A stretch of 59,906 nucleotides of DNA from an uncultured Gammaproteobacteria bacterium (GTDB taxonomy: Bacteria; Pseudomonadota; Gammaproteobacteria; GCA-001735895). Location of the stretch: contig CALDDP010000180.1 of the NCBI GenBank assembly GCA_937936805.1, positions 1 to 59,906 of the forward strand. Reading direction: 5' to 3'. The notes beneath the pieces were generated by a model. That model saw only the letters and a list, made by a program, of their open reading frames with translations. It had not been told where the DNA came from and made no database searches. The position numbers and the translations under genes were made by a program. This document shows positions 6,651 to 57,744 of the stretch, one piece after another; position 1 is the stretch's first letter; every line of letters begins with the position of its first letter.

Positions 6651-9600
6651 CTATTTTTTTGCTTCGTGATCGTCGAGCCATTTGAGCAGGTGGTTGAAAG
6701 GCAGGGGCCTCGACACATAGTATCCCTGCACCTGATCACAGCCAATCTCAGATACGAGTTCCCAGTCCTGCTCGTCTTCGACACCCTCTGCTACCACTTT
6801 CATATCAAGTTTTTTCGCCAGCAATACACTCGACTCGAGGATGGCCCGCGCCGATGCCTCCCGGGCAGCACCATGCACGAAGGCGCGATCGATCTTGAAC
6901 TCGTTGAAGGGGATACGTTGCAGCTGCTCCATCGAAGAATAGCCGGTACCAAAGTCATCGATCGAAAGATTAAAACGCTTCAGCGACAAGCGACTCAGAA
7001 TATCGAGCGCGACCGAGAGATGCTCCATCAAGCGGCTCTCCGTAATTTCGAAGGAAATACTGGAAGGTTCGAGCCCGGACTGTTCCATCAGTGATGAAAT
7101 CCGGTCGGGCCATTCCAGGTCGGTCAACGAATCGACCGAAAGATTAATCGCGATATTGAGGTCGTGGTCCTGCGCTTTTAACTTCAACGTATATGCCATC
7201 GCCTTTTGACAGACGATATCGGTCAGTTCCCCGATCAATCCATTATCTTCCGCCATGTTGATGAATGCATCGGGCTTGATCAGGCCCTTGAGCGGATGAT
7301 TCCAGCGTACCAGTGCTTCTACCCCTACAACCTCACCGGACTTGATATCTACTTTAGGCTGAAAATAAGTATCCAGTTCATCGCTATCGATTGCATTTTT
7401 CAGCTCAGCAAGGCTGAAGGCATCCACCAGCATCATTGTCCCTTCCTGGCGAATTTGATCCAGTGAATCGAGCAGTTCACTGAGCTTGGCCGGCGTTGCC
7501 GGTTTCTCCAGAACCCCGAGCACGTGCAAATCATGCTCGATGGACAGTTTTTCAACCGTTTTCAGAATGCGCAGGTCTTCGCCACTGGTCAGAATGAGCG
7601 AACCGGAGTATTTCATTTTCGCCAGATGGCGGATGAACTCGACCCCGTCCATCTCGGGCATGTTCAAGTCACAGATCACAACATCGATCGAGCCACGATT
7701 ATCCTGTAATACCTCGAGCGCAGCCGCGCCCGACATCGCGTTAAAAACTCCGGATATACCGAGATCATTCAGCATTACGGTTATAACCCGGTGCATGATG
7801 TAATCGTCGTCGACCAGTAACAGCTTGATACTAAACTGGGTAACATCATCGTCTTCATCGGGTAGCTCGAGTTTGAATTCAGCCTCGTTTACCGATGCTT
7901 CATGGGCAGCTATCGAATCACCGAAGAATGTTTCAATATACTCGGCTGCCTGATCGGCAATTCGCTGCAGCTGCGGCATTTGCTTTTCGATATCATCCCA
8001 GTCCGCCGCATTAGCTGCCGCTTCGAGTCGCTGGCATATCTGCGCCATGCTCATTGCGCCCAGGCTGCTCGACGAGGATTTCAACTTGTGGGTATATTCG
8101 GCAAGCTGTTCGTTATTCTTCCACGCGAATGCCTGTTGAATATTATCCAGTTCATCTGTCAGCGATTCTCGATAGGCATTCAACAAATCCCGATGCAGTT
8201 CGGGTTTATCTCCAGTGGATTGTGTGAGCACATTCAAATCGACGGTATCCTGTACCAGCAGGTCTATCGCATCCGGGTTCGTCCAGTCGGAATCTTCAGT
8301 CGTGCTGTGCGGCGTCCATTTCTCGAGTGCGCTGCCGAGGTCATCGAGTTCTACCGGTTTCGCGATGACGTCATTCATACCTACCGCGAAACATTTCTCG
8401 ACATCGGCTTCCATTGCGTTCGCCGTAATCGCAATCACCGGCATTGGTGATTCGTGCTCGGGTTCGTGCTGCCTGATTTGCCGCACCAGTTCGTAGCCAT
8501 TCATTTCAGGCATGCGGATATCGGTCAGTAGCAGGTTGTAATCGCCACCCCGCCATCGCTCCAATGCCTGCTGGCCATTCTCCGCGTAGTCTGCCGAGTA
8601 GCCCAGAATATTTAACTGCGCCTCCATCAGCTGCTGGTTGATAGGATTATCTTCAGCAACCAGTATGCGTGAAGCAGCGGCATTGCTGCGGGTCACGTCG
8701 ACAATCGTCGAATCTGCGGGAGCTACCTCGATAAGAGAATCCGTTGATGCCGCTATCTCCAGAGTTATCCAGAAGGTACTGCCTTCGTTCTCGACACTAT
8801 CGATCTCCAGCTTGCCCTGCATCAAATCGACCAGCTGGCGTGTAATCACCAGCCCGATTCCGGAACCCTCGATACCGCTGAACTCGGCACCCAGTCGATT
8901 AAAAGGCTGGAACAACTCCTTGCGTTTTTCGGCGGAGATTCCACTGCCCGTATCGCGAATACCAACGCGCAGGCAGCCCTTGTCAGCGGGTTCGGATATG
9001 ACGCTGACGTTACCGCCCGGACGGTTGTACTTTACCGCGTTGGTCAACAGGTTAAGAAAAACCTGCTTGAGCCGAATAGAATCAGCCACCAGGTTTACAT
9101 CTTCGAACCGCGCTGCGTCGAAGTCCAGGCTGATGTTGCGCTCCTCTGCAAGCGGCGTTACCCAGTGCACGCTATCGCTGAGAACCTGTATCAGCGATAT
9201 CGGTTCCAGTGACAGGTCGGCCTCGCCAACCTCGATACGGGACAGGTCCAGAATCTGGTCGATAAGCGACATCAGGTGCTTGCCGGCACGATTAATTTCG
9301 ATAGCGTTGGCGAGGTGCTGTTCATCCAGACCACGATCGTAGGTGAACAATTGCGAGAATCCGAGGATTGCATTCAATGGCGTGCGTAGTTCGTGACTCA
9401 TGCTGGAGAGAAACTCGGATTTGGCCGCATTGGCCTGTTCCGCCTGGTTCTTGGCGTCGATCAGTGCAGCCTCGGCATTTTTACGCTCGCTGATATCTTC
9501 ATGAATGGTGATAACCCGTTCCCAGCTATCCTCGTAGCCACGTACCAGGCTTACGATTGAGCGGGTTTGAAACAGGGAATTGTCCATACGCGAATCAACG

Positions 9601-10514
9601 CGTACCGAATCGAAAAAATTACTGCCCCTCGCCAATGCGGCTATTTCCGCGGCATAGTAGGCCACCCACTGTGCGTCCCACCAGCTGTCAATGTCAGCCT
9701 CGCCGGCGATAAACTCTTCTTTCGAATCCGCTTCGTGTATCTGCAGTAACGTCTCGTTGACATTGGTGACACGAGTCGCGCCAATCATTTCGCGCAGTAT
9801 TTTCGGATTATCCAGAAAATATTCTTCCAGGTTTTCGATGCCTTCGAAGCGGAGCTTATCGACAACCTTCTTGATAGCGGAGTAGTCTTCCTCCTGCACG
9901 CCGAACGGTAATTGTGCAAACAGCGAGTGATATCGTTCCTCGCTCTCCTTTAAGGCATCGACAGCGATCATGGCTTCGGTGACATCCTGTACCATGCCGA
10001 AACTCGACACCAGCTTGCCGCTATCGTCAAACACACCCTGTTCGAATTCACGCAAATGGCGCACTTCGTTTTTGCCAACGATCACGCGAAAATCGAACTC
10101 ATGGCAGACGCCCGGTTGCAGGATCGTCTTGGTATCCAGGTGCGAACGATAGTGTTGAAAGTCATCTGGATGGACGATGCGATCAAACTCAGCGCGGTTC
10201 TCGAACAAGCGATCCAGCTCGGCAGGATCAATCCCGAAAACATCGGCTAGCTCCGCCGAATAGGCAATCGGTTTATCGTTTAGCTCATCCCATTCCCAGA
10301 TGCCCAGCTTGAGCATCCTGGAGAACTCCTGACGTCGAAATTCGCGGGAATCGATTAGCGCCTGCGCGTCGGCCAGTTGTGCGCGCAAATCTTCGATTTC
10401 GTCACGCAACTCCTGCTCGGTCGATCGAGTTTTTGCGAGTTGTTTTATTTTCGCTGTCAAGGCATTGATGGGTAGGCATTCACAGCTGTTAGTATAGGCA
10501 GGAATGCGAATCAA
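6651..10514 (-). CDS. cytoplasmic hybrid sensor kinase: coiled-coil/PAS - HisKA/HATPase - REC - HPt - REC - EAL
   Basis: H-box SHELRTPLNAILGF; G-boxes RDTGSGIS and GSGIGL. REC1: ILVAEDNPINQ...LLLTDIRMPEMNG. HPt: HKLKSSSSSLGA. REC2: LLLVDDD...VVICDLNMPEMDG. EAL domain: EALVRW, NLS, EITES, DDFGTG, KIDR, EGVE, QGY. No TM segments. The tracked start is TTG and the first ATG is 65 codons in, so the start is uncertain. Confidence 0.85.
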   Translation of the reverse strand: MIRIPAYTNSCECLPINALTAKIKQLAKTRSTEQELRDEIEDLRAQLADAQALIDSREFRRQEFSRMLKLGIWEWDELNDKPIAYSAELADVFGIDPAELDRLFENRAEFDRIVHPDDFQHYRSHLDTKTILQPGVCHEFDFRVIVGKNEVRHLREFEQGVFDDSGKLVSSFGMVQDVTEAMIAVDALKESEERYHSLFAQLPFGVQEEDYSAIKKVVDKLRFEGIENLEEYFLDNPKILREMIGATRVTNVNETLLQIHEADSKEEFIAGEADIDSWWDAQWVAYYAAEIAALARGSNFFDSVRVDSRMDNSLFQTRSIVSLVRGYEDSWERVITIHEDISERKNAEAALIDAKNQAEQANAAKSEFLSSMSHELRTPLNAILGFSQLFTYDRGLDEQHLANAIEINRAGKHLMSLIDQILDLSRIEVGEADLSLEPISLIQVLSDSVHWVTPLAEERNISLDFDAARFEDVNLVADSIRLKQVFLNLLTNAVKYNRPGGNVSVISEPADKGCLRVGIRDTGSGISAEKRKELFQPFNRLGAEFSGIEGSGIGLVITRQLVDLMQGKLEIDSVENEGSTFWITLEIAASTDSLIEVAPADSTIVDVTRSNAAASRILVAEDNPINQQLMEAQLNILGYSADYAENGQQALERWRGGDYNLLLTDIRMPEMNGYELVRQIRQHEPEHESPMPVIAITANAMEADVEKCFAVGMNDVIAKPVELDDLGSALEKWTPHSTTEDSDWTNPDAIDLLVQDTVDLNVLTQSTGDKPELHRDLLNAYRESLTDELDNIQQAFAWKNNEQLAEYTHKLKSSSSSLGAMSMAQICQRLEAAANAADWDDIEKQMPQLQRIADQAAEYIETFFGDSIAAHEASVNEAEFKLELPDEDDDVTQFSIKLLLVDDDYIMHRVITVMLNDLGISGVFNAMSGAAALEVLQDNRGSIDVVICDLNMPEMDGVEFIRHLAKMKYSGSLILTSGEDLRILKTVEKLSIEHDLHVLGVLEKPATPAKLSELLDSLDQIRQEGTMMLVDAFSLAELKNAIDSDELDTYFQPKVDIKSGEVVGVEALVRWNHPLKGLIKPDAFINMAEDNGLIGELTDIVCQKAMAYTLKLKAQDHDLNIAINLSVDSLTDLEWPDRISSLMEQSGLEPSSISFEITESRLMEHLSVALDILSRLSLKRFNLSIDDFGTGYSSMEQLQRIPFNEFKIDRAFVHGAAREASARAILESSVLLAKKLDMKVVAEGVEDEQDWELVSEIGCDQVQGYYVSRPLPFNHLLKWLDDHEAKK

Positions 10515-10667
10515 TTCTCATGCAATTTCAGGCATTTGTAACTGTCTTCTCTTAATAAGTTGACAGCATTCATAATAGTTCTGCTTTCAGCCTGGGCAAC
10601 TCCGCGCAGTATCTGTTGGAATCGATGGCGTCCAGCAATAGATGGATCAGGATGCGATAATGGCCGG

Positions 10668-13049
10668 TTAAAGCGGTTGAATGATACGGGCTTTGCTGGA
10701 TCGCCCCAGGATTTCGACTTCGAGCTCATCATCTGCCTCAACTTTTTGTCGAAAATAGGCCAGCCCGATCGTTTTTCGCAGTCGATGGCCGTAACCGCCC
10801 GAGGTCACCAGGCCGATTGCGCTATTGCCTCGAAACACCGTATGCATATAAAAAGGATCAAACTCCGGTGCATCGAACTCGAGCAATTCCATACTCCAGT
10901 GATCCTTTGCCTGCGCACGCGCCAGCATTGCGTCCCGACCAGTGAAAGCCCGTCCGTCGATTTTAACCAGATGATCCAGTCCAGCCTCTAGCGGGGTGCG
11001 CTCGGTCGTCAGGTCGGCCCCCCAGGCGCGATAAGCTTTTTCCAGGCGCATTGAATTCATCGCAAAAGCGCCATAAAAACCGAGCTCGAATTTCTCTCCC
11101 GACTGAAGCAATTGTCGCAGCAGGTCTTCCTGCTGCGCGATATCGTGATGCAACTCAAAACCCGCTTCGCCGACATATGAAACGCGCAGCGCATTCACTT
11201 CGATGCCGGCAATCGTAACCGGCCTGGCACGGAACCCCGGGAAAGCCTCGATCGATAAATCCTGCTCGGTAATCTGCTGCAGCATGGCCTCGGCATTGGG
11301 CCCCATGACGCCAAAGACCCCCCTGGCGTCGGTAACATCCTCGATGCTGACATCGAAACCCCGCGCCCGACAGCGTAACAAATCATCGTCCTGGCGGCCG
11401 GCCGCCGCCGCACTGACAAGATAAAGTTCATCTGTGGACAGGTTGCAAACTGAAAACTCCGAATGCACCCCACCGTTGTCGGTAAGCGCATGGGTCAATC
11501 CGATACAACCAGTCCGCGGGGCCCGATTAGCGCCCAGCTGATCGACGAAGCGAAACGCATCCCGACCACTGACTCTGAACTTGGAGAACGCCGACAAATC
11601 TCCGAGGCCGACGTTTTGCTGCAAGTTTCGACATTCCGCGGCGACCGGCTCGAACCAGTTGGCGCGGCGAAAACTCAGCTCCGATGCCTTTACTGCCACG
11701 TCGCGGGAGTACCAATTAGGACGTTCGAATCCGTATACACTGCCAAACACGGCACCTTTACCCTCTAACAGTTCATAAGCGGGGGTCAGTTTTTTATTGC
11801 GCCCGGCCGGGCGTTCTTCGTAAGGATAATGAATGCCGAATTGTGCAGCGAAACACTCTACCGCTTTATCGATTCGGTAATCACGATCCGCGTAAGCCCC
11901 GAAACGACGTGCATCTACCGCCAGCGCATCCATCGGTGGCTCACCGTCGGTCATCCACTCGGCGAGAAATTTACCGGCGCCACCGCCTTCCATAATTCCC
12001 ATCGACGAACCGGTCAGCAGCCAGGCATTATCAAGCTTGAACGCCGGACCGATCAACGGGTTGGCGTCCGGGGTGAAAGTGATCGGGCCATTGACGATGC
12101 TCTTGATCCCGGCATCAGCAGCAGCCGGCACACGGGCCATTGCCTGGCCGGCGATATCTGCGATGGCATCGATATCAGGCTCGAGCAGCTCCATGCCGAA
12201 TTCGGGCGGTACGCCGTCGATCGACCAGGGCTTGCCATGTTTTTCGTAAGGCCCGATGATCACACCGTCACGCTCCATGCGTAGATACCAGCTTTCATCC
12301 GGATCCCGAATCATCGGCAGTTCATGATCGAGCTCGGCAAAGGTATCGATTCGATCGCTAACAATATACTGGTGCAGCATGGGCACCACCGGCAGATCGA
12401 TACCCATCATGTCACCGATTTCACGGCACCAGGTGCCAGCCGCATTGACGATATGCAACGCCGTAATTTCACCCTTGTCAGTGCTTACCAGCCACTCACG
12501 ATTCGGCTTTTGCCGGAGACCGGTTACCCGGGTTTGGCGGTAGATTTCGGCGCCGCGATCGCGCGCACCCTTTGCCATCGCATGGGTGGCCTGACTCGGA
12601 TCGACGTAGCCGTCAAGGGGTTCGTAAATTGCGCCGATCAGATCGTCGACCTCGGCCAGGGGATAAATCTCCTTGAGCTCATGCGGCGTCAGGATATGAA
12701 AATCGAAACCGGCAAATTTACCGATCCCCTGTACCTGGCGAAACTCATCGAGCCGGTCCTGGTAACGCGTTACCCGCAATGCACCGCAGCCATGGAAACC
12801 AACCGCCTGGCCAGTCTCCTCCTCGAGTATCGATCGATACAATTTCACACTGTGCGCGCGCAGATTCATAATCGTAATGTTGTGTGCGTAATGGGTACAG
12901 AGTCCGGCTGCATGCCAGGTTGAACCCGCGGTGAGTTCATTTTTTTCGATCAACACCACGTCGTTCCAGCCGAGCCGGGTCAAGTGGTAAATCAGCGAGG
13001 CACCCATGGCGCCGCCACCGATTACAACTACCTGCGCATGGGATTTCAT
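10668..13049 (-). CDS. DMGDH/SARDH-type FAD dehydrogenase fused to a GcvT-like folate-binding domain (paralogue 1)
   Basis: 793 aa. Dinucleotide fold VVVIGGGAMG, the GSTWHAAGL motif, and a C-terminal aminomethyltransferase-like half. Its start overlaps the upstream stop by ATGA. Confidence 0.85.
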   Translation of the reverse strand: MKSHAQVVVIGGGAMGASLIYHLTRLGWNDVVLIEKNELTAGSTWHAAGLCTHYAHNITIMNLRAHSVKLYRSILEEETGQAVGFHGCGALRVTRYQDRLDEFRQVQGIGKFAGFDFHILTPHELKEIYPLAEVDDLIGAIYEPLDGYVDPSQATHAMAKGARDRGAEIYRQTRVTGLRQKPNREWLVSTDKGEITALHIVNAAGTWCREIGDMMGIDLPVVPMLHQYIVSDRIDTFAELDHELPMIRDPDESWYLRMERDGVIIGPYEKHGKPWSIDGVPPEFGMELLEPDIDAIADIAGQAMARVPAAADAGIKSIVNGPITFTPDANPLIGPAFKLDNAWLLTGSSMGIMEGGGAGKFLAEWMTDGEPPMDALAVDARRFGAYADRDYRIDKAVECFAAQFGIHYPYEERPAGRNKKLTPAYELLEGKGAVFGSVYGFERPNWYSRDVAVKASELSFRRANWFEPVAAECRNLQQNVGLGDLSAFSKFRVSGRDAFRFVDQLGANRAPRTGCIGLTHALTDNGGVHSEFSVCNLSTDELYLVSAAAAGRQDDDLLRCRARGFDVSIEDVTDARGVFGVMGPNAEAMLQQITEQDLSIEAFPGFRARPVTIAGIEVNALRVSYVGEAGFELHHDIAQQEDLLRQLLQSGEKFELGFYGAFAMNSMRLEKAYRAWGADLTTERTPLEAGLDHLVKIDGRAFTGRDAMLARAQAKDHWSMELLEFDAPEFDPFYMHTVFRGNSAIGLVTSGGYGHRLRKTIGLAYFRQKVEADDELEVEILGRSSKARIIQPL

Positions 13050-15457
13050 GTTATTGCTGCCTGGTAGGGAGGTTTATCGAGAATCTGAAGGGCAAACCGT
13101 TCGCCTGCTATCTCAATCTGACAATCCGTGATCTCGGGCGATAGAGGTTGATAAAACATCACGAAACACAAACTCCTGGCGCAGCGGAAACCCAGCCCGC
13201 CCGAGGTACAATGTCCGACAATGGCTTCTCCCCGGTAAACCGGTTCATCGTGCAGTAGTAAAACTTCATCAGCCATAACTTCACACAAGCTCAATTGCTT
13301 GTTCCAGCCGCTCTCTTGTTGTTCCAGTAAAGCCTGCTTACCGATAAACCCGGCTGCCTTTTGCAGATTGACGGTGAAACCAAGACCGCTTTCGAAGGGC
13401 GTGTCTTCAGCACCCAGGTCATGCCCCCAATGGTGGTAACCCTTTTCCAGGCGGCAGGCATCGAGCGCGAGATGACCGGCGAGGCCGAGTTCGTGGCCCT
13501 CCCCGACGCGCAGAATTTCTTCCAGCAGCTGCCTTGCCTGCGCCACCGGAATGTATAGCTCCCAGCCCAGTTCACCGACGAAACTAAGCCGCACTGCATG
13601 CAGATCGCAGCCGTTGATCTGAATCGTTTGAACGCTGCTGAATGGAAACTTCGCCGCACTGAAATCGGACCTACTCAAGTCCTGCAGCAGCGCTCGTGAG
13701 CCGGGTCCCATCAGGCCAAGCACAGCGTAATCTTCGGTCACGTCGTCGATTTTCACATCCATCGAGGAATCGAGATGCCTGCGCAACCAGTACAGGTCCT
13801 TAAATCGCGTGGCTGCCCCGCTGACGAGTCGAAACCGGTCGTCAGCTAACCGCATCAGCGTAATTTCGGCTTCGATGCCGCCACGCTGATTCAACATCAG
13901 GCTGTGCAGCACCCTGCCCACTTCAATATCAACATCGCTACAGCATAGCGATTGCAGACAGGCCAGTGCGTCCTCGCCACCGATTTCGAATTTGCCAAAC
14001 GGGCTTAGCTCGAACAGACTCACATGCTGCTGGCAATGCAGCGCTTCACGTCGTGCTGCCGGCCACCAGCATTGCGCGTCGAAGCTGTACTCCAGTTTTG
14101 CCTCGTCGGCGTCGGCAGCAAACCACAGCGGGCGCTCCCAGCCTGTGGGCGCGCCAAACACCGCACCCCTGGCCGCCAGCAGATCGTGCCAGGTAGACCG
14201 GCGCAGGTTGCGCCCGGTTTCGAACTGCTTGTAGGGCCAATGCATGTCAAACTGGTTATGCACTGCTTCAGGCAGGCGCTGCTGCAAAAACCCGGCCTCG
14301 CTCTGCAATGGATCGAGACGCGCGATATCGACTTCCCATAGATCGAGCGGCGCCTGGTTATCGCGAATCCAGCGGGCCATCACCTTGCCCACGCCGGCCG
14401 AGGACATGATACCGATCGAGTTGAAACCCGCGGCGACAAACAGGTTTCTGCATGTCGGCGCCTCTCCCATAATCTGCTTCGTATCCGGCGTAAAACTTTC
14501 AGGACCATTCATGAAATGGGTAATGCCCTGGTCGGCGATCAGCGGCGCACGCCTGATACCGGCCTCGAGCATAGGCTGCGCGTGGTCCCAGTCCTCGTCG
14601 AACATCAGGAAGCCGGCATCCTGCTGGGTCGGGGTCCATGACCTGGGATTCGGCTCGAAAGCGCCCAGCACGAGTTTGCCATTGTCCCCCTTGAGGTATA
14701 TTCCCCCATCCAGGTCACGAATGATCGGGCAAGGCCGGGGTAATTGCTCGATGACATCCGTTACCAGGTACATATGCTCGCAGGCGACTACAGGGATATC
14801 GACGTTCGCCATGGCACCAAGCTGCGCGGTCCAGGCGCCAGCGCAGAGCAGCAGCTTGTCGCAACTGATTCGCGTACCATCGGCGAGTTCTACCGCGGTC
14901 ACCGCCGCACTGCGCGTTTCGATGTTCGACACCCGGCTGTACTCACGAATCTCGACTCCCAGTTTGGCCGCCGCCCTGGCATAGGCCATGCACAAGTCCA
15001 CCGGGTTGACCTGGGCATCCTGCTCGACCCATAGACCACCGGCAAGGTCTTCGCTGTACAACATCGGCAGGCGCTGCCTGATTTCCTTAGCTGACAGTAG
15101 CTGCGTCTCGAGCTTGCTACGATCCCCCATCGCCTTGATGCGCCGCAACTCAACCATCCGTGCTGCTTCCTGTGCCAGCCAGACGCCACCGGTTTGCTGA
15201 TAACCGGTTGCCTGTCCACTTTCTTCTTCCAGCTGCAGAAAAAGATCGAGCGCGTACCTGGCCAGCAGAGTCAGGTTCATACTCGCACGCAACGGTCCAA
15301 CAATACCGGCGGCATGCCAGCTGGTGCCGCTGGTCAATTGATCGCGCTCCAGCAACATGACGTCCCTGGTACCCAGGCGACCAAGGTGGTAAGCCACGCT
15401 AAGCCCGATAACGCCGCCACCGACGATGACCACCTGGGCCTGTTCCTGCACGGCCAT
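13046..15457 (-). CDS. DMGDH/SARDH-type FAD dehydrogenase fused to a GcvT-like domain (paralogue 2)
   Basis: 803 aa. VVIVGGGVIG and GTSWHAAGI motifs, with a GcvT-like C-terminal half. Its ATG overlaps the MttB stop (TAATG at 15455-15459). Confidence 0.85.
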   Translation of the reverse strand: MAVQEQAQVVIVGGGVIGLSVAYHLGRLGTRDVMLLERDQLTSGTSWHAAGIVGPLRASMNLTLLARYALDLFLQLEEESGQATGYQQTGGVWLAQEAARMVELRRIKAMGDRSKLETQLLSAKEIRQRLPMLYSEDLAGGLWVEQDAQVNPVDLCMAYARAAAKLGVEIREYSRVSNIETRSAAVTAVELADGTRISCDKLLLCAGAWTAQLGAMANVDIPVVACEHMYLVTDVIEQLPRPCPIIRDLDGGIYLKGDNGKLVLGAFEPNPRSWTPTQQDAGFLMFDEDWDHAQPMLEAGIRRAPLIADQGITHFMNGPESFTPDTKQIMGEAPTCRNLFVAAGFNSIGIMSSAGVGKVMARWIRDNQAPLDLWEVDIARLDPLQSEAGFLQQRLPEAVHNQFDMHWPYKQFETGRNLRRSTWHDLLAARGAVFGAPTGWERPLWFAADADEAKLEYSFDAQCWWPAARREALHCQQHVSLFELSPFGKFEIGGEDALACLQSLCCSDVDIEVGRVLHSLMLNQRGGIEAEITLMRLADDRFRLVSGAATRFKDLYWLRRHLDSSMDVKIDDVTEDYAVLGLMGPGSRALLQDLSRSDFSAAKFPFSSVQTIQINGCDLHAVRLSFVGELGWELYIPVAQARQLLEEILRVGEGHELGLAGHLALDACRLEKGYHHWGHDLGAEDTPFESGLGFTVNLQKAAGFIGKQALLEQQESGWNKQLSLCEVMADEVLLLHDEPVYRGEAIVGHCTSGGLGFRCARSLCFVMFYQPLSPEITDCQIEIAGERFALQILDKPPYQAAIT

Positions 15458-17010
15458 TAATAGGCCTTGTCCGGCAACGACGCCTTGCGCCGGTCGACAT
15501 ATTCCTGCAGGGCCTCGAGTCTGGCAGGATCAATCGGCGGTTGCTGGTACTCTTCGAGCAGGCCCTTCCATATCCTGTTGGCGCGCTGTGCTGCTTCGAG
15601 GCTGCCCTCGCTCTGCCATTGCTCGAATGAATTCGCGTCACCGATGCTGGAGCTATAGTAAGCAGTTTCAAAATTATTCAGGGTGTGGGCGCTGGCAAGG
15701 AAATGGCCGCCGGGACCGATCTCGGCAATTGCATCCAGTGCCTGCGCATTATCGGATAAATCCAGCCCCTTGCAGAATTCAATCAACTTGCCGCAGAGAT
15801 CGGCATCAATAATGGTTTTTTCGAAACCGGTACACAGCCCACCTTCCAGCCAACCGGTTGCATGATTGATGAAATTGGCACCCGCCAGTACCGCCATGAT
15901 CAAGCTCATGCTGCCTTCCTGCTGCGCCTGGCTGTCGGGTATCTTGGATGAAGTCAGGCTACCCACCGTGTGAAACGGAACCCCCAGGCGGCGTGCCAGC
16001 TGGCCTGCCGCGAGCACGGTTTTGGCGGCTTCGGGCATGCCGAAGGTAGGTGCGCCCGACTGCATCGACATCGCCGTGGCAAAGCTGCCCATCAGGCACG
16101 GCGTACCGGGGCGTATCAACTGGGTTAGCGCGCAGGTCGCGAGCGCCTCGGCGAGCAACTGCGCCAGCGTACCGGCCTCGGTACAGGGGCTCATCGCGCC
16201 GGTTATCATCCACGGGGTACAGGCGACGGCCTGATTGTTGCTGGCATAAACCTTGAGCGAACCGGACATGGCGTCGTCCATGACCAGTGGCGCATTCGTA
16301 TTGGAGACACCGTATAACACCGTGTTTTGATCGACAAAATCGTCGCCAAACAGAATCTTGACCATCGCCACCGAGTCCTGCGCCCGCTCGCTGCCGATCA
16401 GGGCACCAAACAGGGCACGATCACCGTAGGTAATATGCGACAGCATCATATCGAGATGGCGCTTGTTGACGGGAATGTCGACCGGTTCACAAACGATACC
16501 GCCGCAGTGATGCAGATGCGGAATCATCTGGTGAATCCGATTCAGATCCCTGAAATCCTCGAGGGTCGCATAGCGGCGACCGCGTTCGATATCATGCACA
16601 AACGGCGGCCCGTAAACCGGACTCAATACGGTATTCTCACCGCCGATTTCTACATTGTTGGCTGCATTGCGGGCGTGCTGGGTATACTGGCGCGGCGCGC
16701 TGGCCTGTATGATTTTACGACACATGCCGGGCTCGAAGCGCACCCGCTCACCATCGACATCGGCGCCGGCGTCCCGAAAATAATCCAGGATTTCGGGATC
16801 ATTGTGGAACTCCATGCCGACATCACGCAAAATGCGATCGGCATTTTCCTCGATCAGGCACAGACCTTCCTCGCTGAGGATATCGTAGGTCGCGATATTT
16901 CGACTGATGTAAGGCAAACGGGGAACGCTTGAGACACGCCGCTCGCCGCGAGTTCTTCGCTTACGCCGGCTCACTGGTTTGTCGACGTTATCAGTCAAGA
17001 TCGCTCCCAA
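15457..17010 (-). CDS. MttB-superfamily (trimethylamine methyltransferase-like, non-pyrrolysine) methyltransferase
   Basis: 517 aa. Arg-rich N-terminus (RRKRRTRGERR). Family-typical blocks are shared with the second copy at 58587 (ITGAMSPCT, HATGWLEGGL, GPGGHFL). There is no in-frame amber codon. The tracked start is TTG, so the exact start is uncertain. Confidence 0.8.
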   Translation of the reverse strand: MGAILTDNVDKPVSRRKRRTRGERRVSSVPRLPYISRNIATYDILSEEGLCLIEENADRILRDVGMEFHNDPEILDYFRDAGADVDGERVRFEPGMCRKIIQASAPRQYTQHARNAANNVEIGGENTVLSPVYGPPFVHDIERGRRYATLEDFRDLNRIHQMIPHLHHCGGIVCEPVDIPVNKRHLDMMLSHITYGDRALFGALIGSERAQDSVAMVKILFGDDFVDQNTVLYGVSNTNAPLVMDDAMSGSLKVYASNNQAVACTPWMITGAMSPCTEAGTLAQLLAEALATCALTQLIRPGTPCLMGSFATAMSMQSGAPTFGMPEAAKTVLAAGQLARRLGVPFHTVGSLTSSKIPDSQAQQEGSMSLIMAVLAGANFINHATGWLEGGLCTGFEKTIIDADLCGKLIEFCKGLDLSDNAQALDAIAEIGPGGHFLASAHTLNNFETAYYSSSIGDANSFEQWQSEGSLEAAQRANRIWKGLLEEYQQPPIDPARLEALQEYVDRRKASLPDKAY

Positions 17011-17176
17011 AAGTTACCTGCCGTCAATTATTCTACAGAGATTGCACCCAAAGTAATCAACAGGGGGCAATTCAGGCAAAAAAACGGGTGTCAAAATCGT
17101 TTGCGCCATCATCAGGATTGTCTGCAGACTCAGCTTGGGCTATGTTCGTGCGTAACTGACTCGCGCTGAGATTACG

Positions 17177-18505
17177 ATGGCTTCACAATTCGACCACGAT
17201 CAACACGAATTCGAACTCGACTGGAATACCGACGCCATCGTCGAGCGTCGCAATACTTACTACGCCGCGTCTCAACGCGCCTTTGTGCCTTATCAGAAAC
17301 CACTGATTTTCAGTAAGGGACAGGACAATTATCTGTGGGATGAAAAAGGCAATAAATACCTCGACTGCCTGAGCCAGAACCTGACCATCAGTGTCGGCTA
17401 CAACAACCCGGTAGTGACGCGCGAAGTCATCAGGCAGGCACAAACGCTACAGCACTGTACGACCATGTTCTTTCACCCGGTGCCGGCTCATTTTGCCGAG
17501 GAATTAACTCGCACCATGCCAGCAGGTGAAGAATGGGTAGTGCATCTTTGCAACAGCGGGGCCGAAGCAATCGACATGGCGATTTTGCTGGCACGCAGCT
17601 ACACCGGAAATAACGATATCATTTCGCTGACCAACGCATATCATGGCGCCACCTTCGGCGCCCAGTCGGTTACCGGGATCAGCGGCTTTCGCCACAACAT
17701 ACCGCAGCTGGGCGGAGTGCAGTTTGCGCCGGTGCCGGACCAGTACCGCGGCATTCATGGTGAAGGTGTAGAGCCCTATTTAAATGACCTTGAAGGAACC
17801 ATCCATTATGGCACCTCGGGTCAGCTGGCCGGTATGATAATCGAACCGGTGCAAGGTTATGGCGGTATCATTCCCGTCCCCGAAGGCTACATCAGCGGTG
17901 CCCGGGAGCGTATCAAAGCTGCCGGTGGGTTGCTGATCATAGATGAAGTGCAGTCCGGCATGGCGCGCACGGGGAATAACTTCTGGGCTTTCCAGCAACA
18001 CGGCATAGTGCCCGATATGGTGGTTGCGGCGAAAGGCATGGGTAACGGTTTTCCGCTCGCGGCATTGATCGTCAAACGTGAAATTGCGGAAACGATGGCC
18101 ACTAAATTCTATTTTCACACCTATGGCGCCAATCCGGTAAATTGTGCCGCCGGACGCGCCGTACTGCACGTGATAGAGGCGCATCAGCTGCAACAACGCG
18201 CACAACAGGTCGGCGCGGCATTACTTGCGGTACTCGAGGATTTACAAACCCGTCACCAGGTAATCGGCGCGGTACGCGGGCGCGGCATGATGATGGCAGT
18301 CGAGCTGGTCAAGGATCGCGGCAGCCGCGAACCCGACCCGGAGACCATGATACGACTGTTCGAAAAAACACGCGAGTGCGGACTCGTGGCAAGCAAGTCG
18401 GGTGCTTATCGCAACGTGCTCCGTATATGTCCACCGTTATGCACGCAAATGGAGGATGTTTCGTTTTTCGAAACAGCGATTAACCGGAGTTTTGAAAGTT
18501 TGTAG
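17177..18505 (+). CDS. class-III (omega) PLP aminotransferase, AGXT2 / beta-alanine-pyruvate type
   Basis: 442 aa. Motifs IIDEVQSGMARTG and the PLP-lysine context VAAKGMGNGFPL. Divergent from the MttB operon. Confidence 0.85.
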   Translation: MASQFDHDQHEFELDWNTDAIVERRNTYYAASQRAFVPYQKPLIFSKGQDNYLWDEKGNKYLDCLSQNLTISVGYNNPVVTREVIRQAQTLQHCTTMFFHPVPAHFAEELTRTMPAGEEWVVHLCNSGAEAIDMAILLARSYTGNNDIISLTNAYHGATFGAQSVTGISGFRHNIPQLGGVQFAPVPDQYRGIHGEGVEPYLNDLEGTIHYGTSGQLAGMIIEPVQGYGGIIPVPEGYISGARERIKAAGGLLIIDEVQSGMARTGNNFWAFQQHGIVPDMVVAAKGMGNGFPLAALIVKREIAETMATKFYFHTYGANPVNCAAGRAVLHVIEAHQLQQRAQQVGAALLAVLEDLQTRHQVIGAVRGRGMMMAVELVKDRGSREPDPETMIRLFEKTRECGLVASKSGAYRNVLRICPPLCTQMEDVSFFETAINRSFESL

Positions 18506-18557
18506 GATTAATGTTTAGGGTATAATTCAACACTGATCGATTTTACCGAGGAATGAC

Positions 18558-19133
18558 ATGTCAGAAACCCCATCGACAATGCTGGAGATTGGCAGCCAGG
18601 CGCAAGATTTTTCTTTACCTGAACCGGCCAGCGGTAAACAGCTGAGTCTCGACGACTTTAAAGGCAAGCCCCTGCTGGTTGTCTTTTCCTGTAATCACTG
18701 CCCTTACGTACTGCATATCCTCGGCTCCTTTACGGAATTTGCCAACCAGGCACTAACGCGAGGACTCGCGGTGGTCATGATCAGTTCCAACGACGTCGCT
18801 GGATACCCGGCTGACAGTCCGGAAAAGATGATTGAGCTGGCGCAACGCCAGGGCTTCGAATTTCCCTATCTTTATGACGAATCACAACAGGTTGCGAGTG
18901 CATACCGGGCTGCCTGCACCCCGGATTTCTTTTTATTCGACAGCTCGCATCGGTTGGTCTATCGAGGGCAATACGATGGCTCGAGACCAGGCAACAATGT
19001 TGCGGTGAGCGGTAGTGATTTGCGCAGTGCCGTCGACGCATTATTAAGTGGCGGCGAAATTCCTGCTGACCAGATTCCCAGCGTGGGTTGTAATATCAAG
19101 TGGCGCGCGGGTAACGAACCTGATTATTTCTGA
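18558..19133 (+). CDS. thioredoxin-fold (AhpC/TSA-like) family protein
   Basis: CNHCPY (CxxC) motif, plus SNDVAGYPADSPEKM...FPYLYDESQQVA...CTPDFFLFD...GCNIKW, typical of the conserved thioredoxin-family protein of about 190 aa. Confidence 0.8.
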   Translation: MSETPSTMLEIGSQAQDFSLPEPASGKQLSLDDFKGKPLLVVFSCNHCPYVLHILGSFTEFANQALTRGLAVVMISSNDVAGYPADSPEKMIELAQRQGFEFPYLYDESQQVASAYRAACTPDFFLFDSSHRLVYRGQYDGSRPGNNVAVSGSDLRSAVDALLSGGEIPADQIPSVGCNIKWRAGNEPDYF

Positions 19134-19741
19134 GCCTTTCGTGGCTCCGCGGGATCGTTGTTGGCTTTCATCGCATCTATCCTTTCAACTACTTCGTGCA
19201 TGCTGAGCTGGTGATCCTTGCCGCCACCGAACATATCAGCAAACTCGGAAATCGTATCGCTCAGCCTGTCTTTCGCGACCGATAATTCGCTGCGCAAGGT
19301 TTCATTCTCGACACGCAGGGAAGCGACTTCCTGAGCCGCTTCAAGTTCTTCCTGCGGGGTAGGGTCGCTTCGTGGCCGCAGGCACTTGTAAGCTTCGATT
19401 AGCCTGTCCATGGCAGTGTCAACACTGTCGAGTTGCGCGCGGCCACCCCGGTAAAGGCTGGCTAGCAGATGCTCGAAGAATTCGGCTTCATGGCGATTGA
19501 TATCGGCCAGGGCCACCCCGAGATCTTCTCCTTCGAGATGACATATCGTCTGCAGAAAGGTTCTGCTTTGTTCGCTTCGGCGCAGCGACCGGCCCTCGAG
19601 CCGAGCTTTCAACTCCGCTATTCTTCTGTTTTTGCGTCGCTTACCGATTAAGGTCATCAAGGTCCAGACCAGGAGCAGAATCAGCAGCAGCACAAAACCC
19701 TCGGCCAGCAAAATAAAGTAGATTGCATTGACTTCAAGCAC
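19124..19741 (-). CDS. hypothetical single-pass membrane protein with a cytoplasmic coiled coil
   Basis: N-terminal TM helix (IYFILLAEGFVLLLILLLVWTLMTLI) followed by a charged helical region. The GTG start overlaps the VWA gene stop by 8 nt. No recognisable family. Confidence 0.55.
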   Translation of the reverse strand: MLEVNAIYFILLAEGFVLLLILLLVWTLMTLIGKRRKNRRIAELKARLEGRSLRRSEQSRTFLQTICHLEGEDLGVALADINRHEAEFFEHLLASLYRGGRAQLDSVDTAMDRLIEAYKCLRPRSDPTPQEELEAAQEVASLRVENETLRSELSVAKDRLSDTISEFADMFGGGKDHQLSMHEVVERIDAMKANNDPAEPRKAQK

Positions 19742-29245: not shown

Positions 29246-29728
29246 TTAAGCCTGCTCCAGTAAGACCACGGCCGCAACCGCGATTCCCTGCTCACGCCCG
29301 ATGAATCCGAGCCCCTCGGTGGTGGTCGCCTTGACATTTATGCTCGCGCTCGGGCAGTCGAGATCCTGCGCAAGGTTATCCTTCATCGCCGCAATGTGAG
29401 CTGCCATTTTTGGCGCCTGCGCAATAATGGTGAGATCGGCATTACCCAACCGGTAATTGTCGGCATCGACTAGCTGTTTGATTTCGCGCAGGAACTCCCG
29501 GCTATCGCGATTTTCATTCCGCGCGTCGTCATCGGCAAACAATTGACCGATATCGCCACGCCCCAGCGCGCCAAGCAGGGCATCGCAAAGCGCGTGGATG
29601 AGTACATCGCCATCCGAGTGGGCGACAACAGCCCTGGCGCAGCTGATGTGCACTCCGCCCAGTACGAAACCGTCGCCCTCGGCGAAGGCGTGCACATCAT
29701 AGCCATGTCCAATCCGGGTGTTACTCAT
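29246..29728 (-). CDS. ispF: 2-C-methyl-D-erythritol 2,4-cyclodiphosphate synthase
   Basis: 160 aa. RIGHGYDVHAF...HSDGDVLIHALCDALLGA... Confidence 0.95.
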   Translation of the reverse strand: MSNTRIGHGYDVHAFAEGDGFVLGGVHISCARAVVAHSDGDVLIHALCDALLGALGRGDIGQLFADDDARNENRDSREFLREIKQLVDADNYRLGNADLTIIAQAPKMAAHIAAMKDNLAQDLDCPSASINVKATTTEGLGFIGREQGIAVAAVVLLEQA

Positions 29729-54007: not shown

Positions 54008-56425
54008 CTAACCGCGCAGGTACTCATTGTCCGGATCGAATAACGGCCTGCTATAAAGCAGTGCCGGAATCATCTCACCGAGAATTTCGATCTCGACATG
54101 ACGCCCTTCCTCGATCAATTCGAGCGGCAGAAATCCAAACGCGATACTTTTCTGCGCGTAATGCGAATAACCGCCCGAAGTCACGTAACCAACCACGTCG
54201 CCATCATGCCAGATCGGTTCCCAGGCGACGGCGTCGGCATCACGCGCATCGACCTCGAAAGTGCAAAGTTTGCGCGACACACCCTGCTCTTTTTCCGCCA
54301 GTACAGCCGCTTTGCCGATAAAATCGTTCCGTTTATCGTAGGCGACAAATCGATCCAGCCCGGTCTCGAGCGGTGTGTAATCGGGTTTGAATTCTCGCAT
54401 CCACGAACCGAAAGACTTGTCCAGGCGCAGGCTCATCATTGCGCGCATACCGAATGGGCGCAGCCCCAGGTCCTTGCCGGCGTCGGTCAGCAATTGATAA
54501 AGCGCAACCTGGTTATACCAGGGCACATAAATTTCATAGCCACGATCACCGGTGTAACTGACGCGTTGCACGATAGCCCGGCACTGGCCAATGTCGATTT
54601 TGCGGATCGACAGGAACGGCATTGCCGCGGTTGATACGTCGGCAAGCGTAACCCGACTCAATAGTTCCTGCGCGCGCGGACCCGCAATCTGAAAACCGAT
54701 TCGCTCCCGCGAAACATTTTTCAGGCTGACTCCACTGGCGGGTAAATGCTGCTCGAACCAGCGCATGTGGTAGGCCTGGGCTCCAAATGACGCCGTCACC
54801 TGGAAAACATCGCTCTCCAGTTGCGCAACGGTAAAATCCCCGATTATTCTACCTTTCGGGCTCAGCATCGGGTTTAAACCGAGACGCCCGGGCGGCGGAA
54901 TTTTCCCCGCCATTATGGTATCCAGGTATTCGAGTGCACCTGCGCCGGAGACTTCATATTTGCCAAAATTATGTACTTCGTTTATGCCGACTCCTGCGCG
55001 CACCGCACGCACTTCCCCGGCAACCGTATCGAATGCATTGGAACGCCTGAAACTCGGTATTTCATATGGTTCCTCACCCAGCGGGGCAAAATAATTAACA
55101 TGCTCCATGCCATACATTTCACCGAACACCGCATTTTGCGACTGCCAGATGGCATATGCGGGCGTGGTCTCGAGCGGCCGAGCCGCTGGTATTTCCTCGT
55201 TCGGATAAGACACGGTAAAACGGCGTTGATAATTCTCACGCACCTTGAGCCGGGTATACGATGGCGTGCAATAATCGCCGAAGCGCGCCACGTCCATGGC
55301 AAAAACATCGCGCGAGGGCTCCCCGTCAACCATCCATTCCGCCAGCGTCAGGCCGACGCCGCCGCCCTGGCTGAAGCCTGCCATAACGGCACAGGCCGAC
55401 CAGTAGTTGCGCAGCCCGGGCACCGGGCCGACCAGCGGATTACCATCGGGGGCGAAGGTAAACGGGCCGTTGACAATGGTCTTGATACCCGCATCCGCGA
55501 GTACCGGGAAACGTTTGAAGGCAAACTCCATCGAGTCACCGATACGATCCAGGTTATCATCCAGCAGTTCATGCCCGAAATCCCAGCGCGTACCGTCAAC
55601 GGCCCAGGGCTCGCAATTCTGTTCATAGAATCCAATGACCAGTCCTTTACCTTCCTGGCGCAGGTAACTTTCTCCCTCGGGATCCATCACATGTGGCAAT
55701 TCCTGGTCACGGTCGAACACCGCGGGGATGTTATCGGTCGCGAAGTACTGATGTTCCATCGGGTGCAGCGGCAGATAGATGCCCGCCATCGCGCCGACCT
55801 CGCGTGCCCAGAGTCCAGCGGCATTGACCAGGTTTTCCGCAATGACGGTGCCCTGCTCGGTGACGACTTCCCAGCCACCATCGGTGCGCGGACTGGTTTC
55901 CAGCACGCGATTGCGCAGTACGATTTCGGCACCCTGCATTTGCGCGGCTTTGGCATAGGCATGGGTGGTGCCGGAGGGATCCAGGTGCCCGTCGAGCGGA
56001 TCGTAAAGGCCCCCGAGCACCCCTTCGGTATTGGTAATCGGGCTAAGTTTTCGAATTTCCCCGGGTGTAATCAACTCGGTATCAAGCCCCATGTGACGGT
56101 GCATCGCGCGCGCGGATTTCAGAAAATCGAGGCGTTCGGGAGATTCGGCCAGCGTGATACCGCCGACATGATGCAGGCTGCAGGATTGACCGGTAATCTC
56201 TTCGAGTTCGCGATAAAGCCGAATCGTGTAGCCCTGCAGGGCCGCCATATTGGTGTCGGCATTGAGCGTATGAAAACCGCCCGCTGCATGCCAGGTCGAC
56301 CCCGACGTCAGTTCCGAGCGCTCGATCAAAATGACATCTTTCATGCCCAGCCGGGTCAGGTGATAAATGACGCTGCATCCAACCACCCCGCCACCGATAA
56401 CGACAACTTGCGCATGACTTTTCAT
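54008..56425 (-). CDS. DMGDH/SARDH-type FAD dehydrogenase fused to a GcvT-like domain (paralogue 3)
   Basis: 805 aa. MKSHAQVVVIGGGVVG is identical to the first 13 aa of paralogue 1. GSTWHAAGG motif and a GcvT-like C-terminal half. Confidence 0.85.
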   Translation of the reverse strand: MKSHAQVVVIGGGVVGCSVIYHLTRLGMKDVILIERSELTSGSTWHAAGGFHTLNADTNMAALQGYTIRLYRELEEITGQSCSLHHVGGITLAESPERLDFLKSARAMHRHMGLDTELITPGEIRKLSPITNTEGVLGGLYDPLDGHLDPSGTTHAYAKAAQMQGAEIVLRNRVLETSPRTDGGWEVVTEQGTVIAENLVNAAGLWAREVGAMAGIYLPLHPMEHQYFATDNIPAVFDRDQELPHVMDPEGESYLRQEGKGLVIGFYEQNCEPWAVDGTRWDFGHELLDDNLDRIGDSMEFAFKRFPVLADAGIKTIVNGPFTFAPDGNPLVGPVPGLRNYWSACAVMAGFSQGGGVGLTLAEWMVDGEPSRDVFAMDVARFGDYCTPSYTRLKVRENYQRRFTVSYPNEEIPAARPLETTPAYAIWQSQNAVFGEMYGMEHVNYFAPLGEEPYEIPSFRRSNAFDTVAGEVRAVRAGVGINEVHNFGKYEVSGAGALEYLDTIMAGKIPPPGRLGLNPMLSPKGRIIGDFTVAQLESDVFQVTASFGAQAYHMRWFEQHLPASGVSLKNVSRERIGFQIAGPRAQELLSRVTLADVSTAAMPFLSIRKIDIGQCRAIVQRVSYTGDRGYEIYVPWYNQVALYQLLTDAGKDLGLRPFGMRAMMSLRLDKSFGSWMREFKPDYTPLETGLDRFVAYDKRNDFIGKAAVLAEKEQGVSRKLCTFEVDARDADAVAWEPIWHDGDVVGYVTSGGYSHYAQKSIAFGFLPLELIEEGRHVEIEILGEMIPALLYSRPLFDPDNEYLRG

Positions 56426-56430
56426 AACTG

Positions 56431-57738: not shown

Positions 57739-57744
57739 ATTTTT

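Follow-up and report, generated by a model that had tools for sequence, protein, structure and literature searches.

In marine and soil Proteobacteria, few methyltransferase genes without an explained role are as common as those for non-pyrrolysine MttB homologues. To our knowledge, only six MttB substrates are known, all of them from anaerobes or from the glycine betaine system. The subject here is a four-gene module on a 59,906-nucleotide contig of an uncultured gammaproteobacterium (NCBI GenBank assembly GCA_937936805.1, contig CALDDP010000180.1, positions 1 to 59,906; this whole stretch is called the window). The module encodes an MttB-superfamily methyltransferase (MttB1), two dehydrogenases of the dimethylglycine dehydrogenase (DMGDH) family (DH1 and DH2) and a class-III enzyme dependent on pyridoxal 5'-phosphate (PLP). 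Judged from its sequence, which has a clear signature, the module is a widespread and uncharacterised paralogue of the aerobic Mtg pathway. Its probable substrate is a trimethylammonium compound other than glycine betaine, from which it would take all three N-methyl groups and, after them, the nitrogen. Full-text searches found no description of the four-gene module or of the "His-type" clade to which MttB1 is assigned below.

The anaerobic MttB systems of Desulfitobacterium and Eubacterium act on glycine betaine (MtgB), proline betaine (MtpB), carnitine (MtcB), gamma-butyrobetaine (MtyB) and phosphocholine (MthB) (PMC13080624, PMC12155760). Their methyltransferases (MT1) are TIM barrels of the same Pfam family as MttB1, and each demethylates its quaternary amine once, as is expected of MttB1. 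Unlike the module, which is proposed to reach a primary amine and deaminate it, these systems remove one methyl group and excrete the tertiary amine. They also differ in that each has its own corrinoid protein, MT2 and often an activase encoded alongside. Picking and coworkers used mutagenesis and a structure with bound ligand to define the glycine betaine site of Desulfitobacterium hafniense MtgB (DhMtgB): cation-pi contacts come from Y97 and F356, and the carboxylate is bound by R312 and H348 (PMC13080624). R312 forms a salt bridge with the acidic group of the substrate and is kept in every functionally characterised MttB member; the substrates of all these enzymes are acidic quaternary amines (PMC13080624).

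The aerobic MtgBCD(E) system, a glycine betaine demethylase combined with a split methionine synthase, has been described in Ruegeria pomeroyi, Phaeobacter inhibens and Sinorhizobium meliloti (PMC12478193). Neither mtgC nor mtgD of R. pomeroyi is linked to mtgB; knock-outs show that glycine betaine demethylation requires both genes, which also serve the split methionine synthase (PMC12478193). An mtgC knock-out shows that the gene is required in P. inhibens, where the partner is again unlinked and only mtgB1 among four PF06253-type genes is tied to glycine betaine (bioRxiv 10.64898/2025.12.19.695462). As many as seven PF06253 paralogues in one genome are presumed to draw on the same MtgC and MtgD, and mtgC occurs in marine Gammaproteobacteria (PMC12478193). 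The S. meliloti MtgB locus, in which we find genes for a cobalamin-binding protein, a methyltetrahydrofolate:cobalamin methyltransferase, MetF, an ASKHA (RamA-like) protein, DUF1638 and bmt, is the MtgBCDE locus of Mausz et al. (PMC12478193). MtgC is about 80% identical across phyla.

The module resembles this aerobic system in its PF06253 enzyme, in its aerobic proteobacterial host, in that corrinoid and MT2 genes need not adjoin the methyltransferase gene, and in having tetrahydrofolate (THF)-linked oxidative demethylases next to it. It is unlike the aerobic system in three respects: MttB1 has a set of fixed partners, namely two specific paralogues of the DMGDH family and a class-III aminotransferase, MttB1-type genes are never found beside mtgC or mtgD (39 loci), and the MttB1 clade has an Arg-to-His change at the acid-binding position together with eight other clade-specific changes.

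The four-gene module and its conservation

All four genes appear in the list of open reading frames (ORFs) at the positions given by the original prediction, an earlier reading of this DNA (Table 1). The sequence, read directly, bears out the claim that MttB1, DH1 and DH2 form a translationally coupled minus-strand operon: their ends overlap in TAATG at 15459-15455 (MttB1/DH1) and ATGA at 13049-13046 (DH1/DH2). A Pfam scan returned all of the predicted MTTB, DAO, GCV_T and GCV_T_C assignments, with DAO, FAO_M, GCV_T and GCV_T_C together in each of the two fusions of about 800 residues that join flavin adenine dinucleotide (FAD) and GcvT domains, and it placed the divergent gene among the class-III aminotransferases.

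Table 1. Positions, strands and predicted character of the features discussed (coordinates are those of the window)
Feature	Position	Strand	Description
MttB1	15457-17010	minus	non-pyrrolysine MttB-superfamily methyltransferase (MT1); full-length PF06253 MTTB, E 1e-206
DH1	13046-15457	minus	DAO + FAO_M + GCV_T + GCV_T_C; N-demethylating FAD/THF dehydrogenase
DH2	10668-13049	minus	DAO + FAO_M + GCV_T + GCV_T_C; N-demethylating FAD/THF dehydrogenase, close to dimethylglycine dehydrogenase
Class-III PLP enzyme	17177-18505	plus, divergent from MttB1	PF00202, E 1.6e-91
Divergent intergenic region, MttB1/aminotransferase	17011-17176		166 bp; presumed shared control region
Hybrid sensor	6651-10514	minus	1287 aa; PAS, HisKA, HATPase, two receiver domains, Hpt, EAL
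ORF outside the Pfam scan	29246-29728		160 aa; IspF-like by sequence reading
Cluster 2	54008-59906	minus	MttB2-HTH-DAO-DH3, 3' end of window
MttB2	58587 to window end (cut)	minus	Arg-type MttB
DH3	54008-56425	minus	DMGDH-like, 622 bits, TWHAAG

The neighbourhood of this MttB clade was compared by scanning one genome per species, which yielded 80 loci, and by searching all of their ORFs with BLAST against the window proteins. An MttB at least 62% identical to MttB1 is almost always accompanied by orthologues of DH1, DH2 and the aminotransferase. An MttB of 55% identity or less never occurs with the module, and a few such loci have distant matches (26-35%) to DH2 or the aminotransferase. The 39 MttB1-type loci, a count that includes the window and a Mesorhizobium plasmid locus, belong to Gamma- and Alphaproteobacteria. 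All three partners are present at 25 of them, nine are cut by a contig end or are variants, and five have none. The gene order differs between groups. In gammaproteobacterial metagenome-assembled genomes (MAGs) the aminotransferase gene diverges from MttB-DH1-DH2, as in the window; in Mesorhizobium and Shinella an aminotransferase-LysR pair diverges from DH1-DH2-MttB; and in Roseovarius and other roseobacters the aminotransferase lies within the operon (MttB-DH1-DH2-aminotransferase). Since the set is conserved through rearrangement and across classes, these comparisons argue strongly for a single pathway in which all four proteins take part, as the original prediction had supposed from gene content.

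Two further gene types often accompany the module, a LysR regulator and an OpuAC-type betaine importer, and both identities were confirmed by Pfam. In a Paracoccaceae MAG (L025) the operon continues into an OpuAC-type binding protein, an ABC ATPase and a permease. On plasmid pB1-1-8 of Mesorhizobium sp. B1-1-8 (L082) the order aminotransferase-LysR-DH1-DH2-MttB is joined by an ABC transporter annotated as belonging to the betaine/proline/choline family. The module-linked OpuAC binding protein has only distant matches in the PDB, to ProX and ChoX (at most 41 bits), and these give no clue to the substrate.

DH1 and DH2 are separate orthologous groups, with 47-92% and 45-96% identity, respectively, within each group across alpha- and gammaproteobacterial loci. 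They are only 32% identical to each other, and DH1 is the more divergent of the pair. The DMGDH-like genes that adjoin true mtgBCD clusters are only about 30% identical to either.

Substrate pocket and probable corrinoid partner of MttB1

Residues 16-513 of MttB1 align to positions 3-500 of the 500 positions of the PF06253 profile, and the ORF is uninterrupted, with no in-frame amber codon. The family assignment of the original prediction thus stands, while its length of 517 residues probably does not. MttB1 initiates at TTG, and the first TTG gives 517 residues. A second in-frame TTG, four codons on at 16998, is the likelier start, because GGAG five nucleotides upstream makes a better Shine-Dalgarno sequence and because the resulting 513 residues are the commonest length among orthologues. 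The best solved relative of MttB1 is S. meliloti MtgB (PDB 4YYC; 606 bits, 55% identity over the full length), and the score against DhMtgB (2QNE/9YCE) is 351 bits.

The DhMtgB pocket residues were mapped by way of the 9YCE alignment onto an alignment of 92 MttB homologues. The position of R312 is His in 39/39 MttB1-type loci (H347 in MttB1, within the motif P[FLM]HT[VI]G) and Arg in the remaining 53/53 homologues, which make up the MtgC-linked, the Ruegeria/Roseovarius-dominated and the MttB2 clades. Among the metagenomic matches listed, it is His in 120/120 proteins at least 68% identical to MttB1 and Arg in 120/120 MttB2-type proteins. Only nine positions discriminate between the MttB1 and MtgC-linked clades; R312H is one, and the neighbouring L347N and a change from Phe to Trp at 232 (Leu in DhMtgB) are two more. 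The equivalents of Y97 and H348 are kept in MttB1 as Y133 and H383. The F356 equivalent is Gly, as in S. meliloti MtgB, and a conserved Trp lies four residues upstream. By this signature, H347 in place of DhMtgB R312, MttB1 is the founder of the His-type clade.

Because the acid-binding Arg has become an invariant His in the clade, glycine betaine, one of the candidates in the original prediction, is an unlikely substrate for MttB1. The change points to a substrate tail that is bound differently, either as a longer carboxylate betaine or through a non-carboxylate or non-acidic group. A glycine betaine pathway would make MttB1 a second MtgB, DH2 a DMGDH, DH1 a sarcosine dehydrogenase and the PLP enzyme an AGXT2-like glycine:pyruvate/glyoxylate aminotransferase, and it is regarded here as rather doubtful. 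DH2 does score 653 bits against mammalian DMGDH, but DH3 of the other cluster in the window is about as DMGDH-like (622 bits), and the DMGDH-like genes beside true mtgBCD clusters have only the low identity to DH1 and DH2 given above. The nearest relative of MttB1 that is characterised by its context is the MtgB clade; however, that MtgC-linked clade keeps the Arg, whereas all 159 members of the MttB1 clade have His, along with L347N. An importer of the OpuAC-type glycine betaine family adjoins the module, as such a pathway would have it, but a dedicated class-III aminotransferase is out of place, since glycine normally needs none. Finally, genes for dimethylglycine and sarcosine demethylation are found near mtgBCD in marine Alpha-, Gamma- and Deltaproteobacteria, which would suit a glycine betaine route (PMC12478193).

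The original prediction had noted that the window holds no ORF with a B12-binding signature and no MtgA/MtbA-like gene, and three kinds of search agree. No B12-binding domain (PF02310/PF02607) or pterin-binding domain (PF00809) was found among the 48 ORFs of the 59.9-kb window that were scanned with Pfam. One long non-nested ORF lay outside that scan, and it reads as IspF-like (Table 1). The S. meliloti MtgC, MtgD, RamA-like activase and DUF1638 proteins had no match in the window by tblastn, and a six-frame scan of the window for DxHxxG...SxL...GG was likewise negative, although the MtgC control matched. Across the compared loci, such partner genes occur within 10 kb at 14 of 37 Arg-type MttB loci (48-56% identical to MttB1), in contrast to none of the 39 His-type loci, where neither mtgC nor mtgD nor an activase gene was found within that distance. 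No MtgC was found on the Mesorhizobium plasmid that carries the module, and no mtgC or mtgD was found adjoining MttB2 in relatives.

From the missing neighbour the original prediction had argued for an unknown methyl acceptor. The shared and unlinked MtgC and MtgD published for aerobes undercut that step, as they would a step to a B12-free MttB. Given the 55% identity of MttB1 to a corrinoid-linked MtgB and the genetics of the marine relatives, the corrinoid partner of MttB1 is most likely a shared MtgC/MtgD pair encoded elsewhere in the genome. The simplest reading of MttB1 would then be an accessory substrate module that plugs into this shared pair. The original prediction had named a required corrinoid/MT2 pair encoded elsewhere as evidence against itself; such a pair is provided by analogy with R. 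pomeroyi and P. inhibens, and not from the genome that carries the window. The 2025 work largely answers the headline corrinoid puzzle.

Direct transfer of the methyl group from a His-type MttB to tetrahydrofolate or another acceptor, without a corrinoid, is given a very slim chance. It would account for the contrast between 0/39 and 14/37 loci, for the plasmid without MtgC and for the remodelled pocket. We know of no MttB member that acts without cobalamin, and other accessory paralogues (the MttB2 and Ruegeria clades) are equally unlinked. The full-length likeness of MttB1 to a corrinoid-linked enzyme also speaks against it, and the pathway of R. pomeroyi and P. inhibens, with its unlinked MtgB, needs MtgC (PMC12478193; bioRxiv 10.64898/2025.12.19.695462). 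It is similarly improbable, if by a hair less so, that the His-type clade is the first group in the MttB family without a dedicated or shared corrinoid or, less radically, the first without an Arg-bound acidic group on its substrate, as for choline or tetramethylammonium. Were either the case, aerobic bacteria would have a complete pathway, with no need of an oxygenase, by which a trimethylammonium compound is taken down to a primary amine.

Proposed pathway and terminal enzyme

The covalent-FAD His motif is present in both dehydrogenases, as had been claimed: SWHAAG at residue 46 of DH1 and TWHAAG at residue 44 of DH2. Their best PDB matches are rat and human DMGDH and Arthrobacter DMGO. In human DMGDH, His91 carries the 8-alpha-FAD linkage, and in DMGO H225 and Y259 form the catalytic dyad (PMC5082570). 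By alignment, the dyad corresponds in DH1 to H228 and the Tyr of "GGIYLKG"; in DH2 it is read in "LHQY" and "SWYLR". DH2 is the closer of the two to rat DMGDH (653 bits, as against 446 for DH1), and for that reason it is proposed that DH2 acts on the tertiary amine and DH1, in the manner of a sarcosine dehydrogenase, on the secondary amine, an order that we infer from these scores only.

Homology and the genetics of relatives suggest how the pathway may begin. MttB1 would bind the quaternary amine and methylate the Co(I) form of an MtgC-type cobalamin protein, which would be encoded elsewhere and be common to other MttB paralogues and the split methionine synthase. An MtgD-type enzyme would then transfer the methyl group to tetrahydrofolate. 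In the second step DH2 would oxidise one methyl group of the tertiary amine, the one-carbon unit passing to tetrahydrofolate on the GcvT domain, and in the third DH1 would treat the secondary amine likewise. Both would carry covalent FAD and pass their electrons to the aerobic respiratory chain. Lastly, the class-III PLP enzyme may turn the primary amine, by transamination, into an aldehyde or oxo product. Since the four genes travel together across classes, the scheme of the original prediction, in which one methyl transfer and two oxidative, THF-linked demethylations are followed by deamination, fits the locus. The mitochondrial BHMT-DMGDH-SARDH route is alike in that one methyl transfer is followed by two covalent-FAD, THF-dependent dehydrogenases of the same family, whose (S/T)WHAAG motif and His/Tyr dyad are kept in DH1 and DH2. 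It is unlike the module in that the latter uses an MttB-type first enzyme, probably a substrate other than glycine betaine, and a dedicated terminal PLP enzyme.

The identity of the terminal enzyme is less straightforward. The best PDB match is human ethanolamine-phosphate phospho-lyase ETNPPL (AGXT2L1; 6TOR, 264 bits, 36% identity), followed by amino-acid racemases and then an Arthrobacter phospho-lyase (A1RDF1; 5G4I, 213 bits), and the top NCBIfam models are AGXT2L-type fusion proteins. The enzyme shares its fold with ETNPPL and the AGXT2 subgroup, and the catalytic-Lys region "AAKGMGNG" aligns to "MGKPMGNG" of ETNPPL. Unlike ETNPPL, which has Lys ("NVLKIKPPMC"), the enzyme has the Arg of oxo-acid transaminases in "NVLRICPPLC", and this Arg (NV[LI]R[IM]xPP[LM]C) is invariant in 31/31 module-linked orthologues. 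We take its position to be that of GabT R398, which binds the carboxylate of the oxo acid. A further difference from ETNPPL is that the module has no phosphate-donor gene; no conserved kinase was found across the compared loci, plasmid pB1-1-8 included. Taken with the retention of R312 in the phosphocholine enzyme MthB, the invariant Arg and the missing kinase favour transamination over elimination, and the enzyme is probably a true omega-amine:2-oxoacid aminotransferase. The family named in the original prediction holds, and the Arg is of the transaminase type; the nearest solved relative is a phospho-lyase. A phospho-lyase identity, which the ETNPPL/AGXT2L similarity had raised, is weakened by the invariant Arg.

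The same evidence bears on an O-esterified choline such as phosphocholine or choline-O-sulfate as the substrate. In that case the PLP enzyme would be a beta-eliminating lyase that converts phospho- or sulfo-ethanolamine to acetaldehyde, ammonia and phosphate or sulfate. The phospho-lyases among its relatives and the AGXT2L-type models would be explained, but the Arg in every orthologue, where ETNPPL has Lys, would not. A phosphocholine-acting MttB member does exist in MthB (PMC12155760), but MthB keeps R312 and MttB1 does not (PMC13080624). Sulfotransfer_5 genes stand by the module at three loci, and a glycerophosphodiester phosphodiesterase (GDPD) gene and a UgpB-like protein at one; however, each of these links is limited to few loci, and no kinase is conserved. 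An O-esterified choline is thus decidedly improbable.

Several observations nevertheless weigh against the proposed removal of three methyl groups and the nitrogen from a substrate other than glycine betaine. The first is the absence of corrinoid, MT2 and activase genes within 10 kb of any of the 39 His-type MttB genes, and the second is that the closest structural relative of the terminal enzyme is a lyase and not a transaminase. Additionally, His is able to bind a carboxylate through a hydrogen bond, an arrangement found in ProX-type binding proteins (PMC13080624), and on that account a carboxylate betaine may still be the substrate. Finally, five loci from Hyphomicrobiales or unclassified alphaproteobacterial MAGs (L023, L029, L031, L035, L037) carry only a divergent LysR gene and a His-type MttB, from which it follows that the methyltransferase can work without the two dehydrogenases.

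At four of these five loci the neighbours, by reading of N-terminal sequences, include flagellin and serine-cycle genes: malyl-CoA lyase at 4/4 loci, and malate thiokinase, a serine-glyoxylate aminotransferase-like (Sga-like) protein and PEP carboxylase at two. In these bacteria the methyltransferase alone seems to feed one-carbon metabolism in a methylotroph setting.

Variant loci, neighbouring genes and significance

The original prediction had overlooked another MttB cluster, which closes the window at its 3' end (Table 1). Besides MttB2 and DH3 it holds a 281-residue helix-turn-helix (HTH) protein and a 435-residue DAO-family oxidase, for which no PDB relative was found. In relatives, genes for an MFS transporter and for a PF12974 "Phosphonate-bd" binding protein are found upstream, in divergent orientation. 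A locus in an Acidiferrobacterales MAG (L009, 8073-14053) has a His-type MttB, a DH2 orthologue and a homologue of the 435-residue oxidase (58% identical), with no DH1 and no aminotransferase. Its layout matches that of cluster 2 (MttB2-DAO-DH3), one DAO-family oxidase standing in place of DH1 and the aminotransferase. In both, cleavage of the N-methyl amine to an aldehyde by a single oxidase would take the place of demethylation followed by transamination. This substitution in the variants suggests that the aminotransferase acts on the end product of the pathway.

The scaffold of the Olavius algarvensis Gamma 3 symbiont (L032, 9971-14209), from an old assembly, has no DH1, and its DH2 falls into two overlapping ORFs, which could reflect gene decay or an assembly error. 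Elsewhere, a 250-residue PF19798 Sulfotransfer_5 gene directly adjoins the aminotransferase or MttB gene (L011, 7486-8250; L026; L033, with two copies), and it might point to a sulfated substrate. In a Chromatiales symbiont of Bugula neritina (L034, 10600-13517) the module is followed by a PF03009 GDPD gene and a UgpB-like binding protein, at this single locus. Genes of amine catabolism, identified from their N-terminal sequences, lie near the module at four loci (L030, 3076-6323; L011, 12549-13688; L033, 1558-2667; L024, 3901-5658). They encode Rieske oxygenase alpha subunits (three loci), a 686-residue OYE/TMADH-like flavoprotein and, at one locus, a GMC choline-dehydrogenase-like oxidoreductase. 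As clues to the substrate these flanking genes (GDPD/UgpB at one locus, Sulfotransfer_5 at three, Rieske at three and GMC at one) are too sporadic, and they were set aside.

The hybrid sensor gene lies directly downstream of DH2 in the window, a position kept in gammaproteobacterial relatives (L001, L006, L007, L032, L036) and not in alphaproteobacterial loci. A consensus scan of 10300-19300 for promoters and terminators gave matches no more numerous than in shuffled sequence, and none was assigned. The G+C content of the window peaks at 14001-16000 (DH1 and the 3' part of MttB1), at 0.595 compared with about 0.53. This peak, the plasmid location in Mesorhizobium and the patchy distribution among Alpha- and Gammaproteobacteria suggest horizontal transfer of the module.

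The closest relatives are uncultivated marine Gammaproteobacteria, including the O. algarvensis Gamma 3 endosymbiont (MttB1 84-86% identical). A 95%-identical module is found on JGI contig Ga0049107_10000005 (325 kb). An aerobic respiratory lifestyle is plausible for the host, since genes for heme A synthase (CtaA) and Ccm cytochrome c maturation are present in the window. The His-type clade as a whole ranges over gutless-worm and bryozoan symbionts, sediment and pelagic MAGs, rhizobia and roseobacters. It brings its own downstream enzymes, regulator and importer, and a one-residue His/Arg signature distinguishes it from the glycine betaine enzymes. The module occurs in cultured strains of Mesorhizobium (sp. 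B1-1-8), Shinella (S. lacus CPCC 100929) and Roseovarius, which makes it directly testable. Identification of the substrate would add a route by which aerobic bacteria turn methylated nitrogen osmolytes into one-carbon units, nitrogen and energy, and it would extend the known cobalamin demand of these bacteria.

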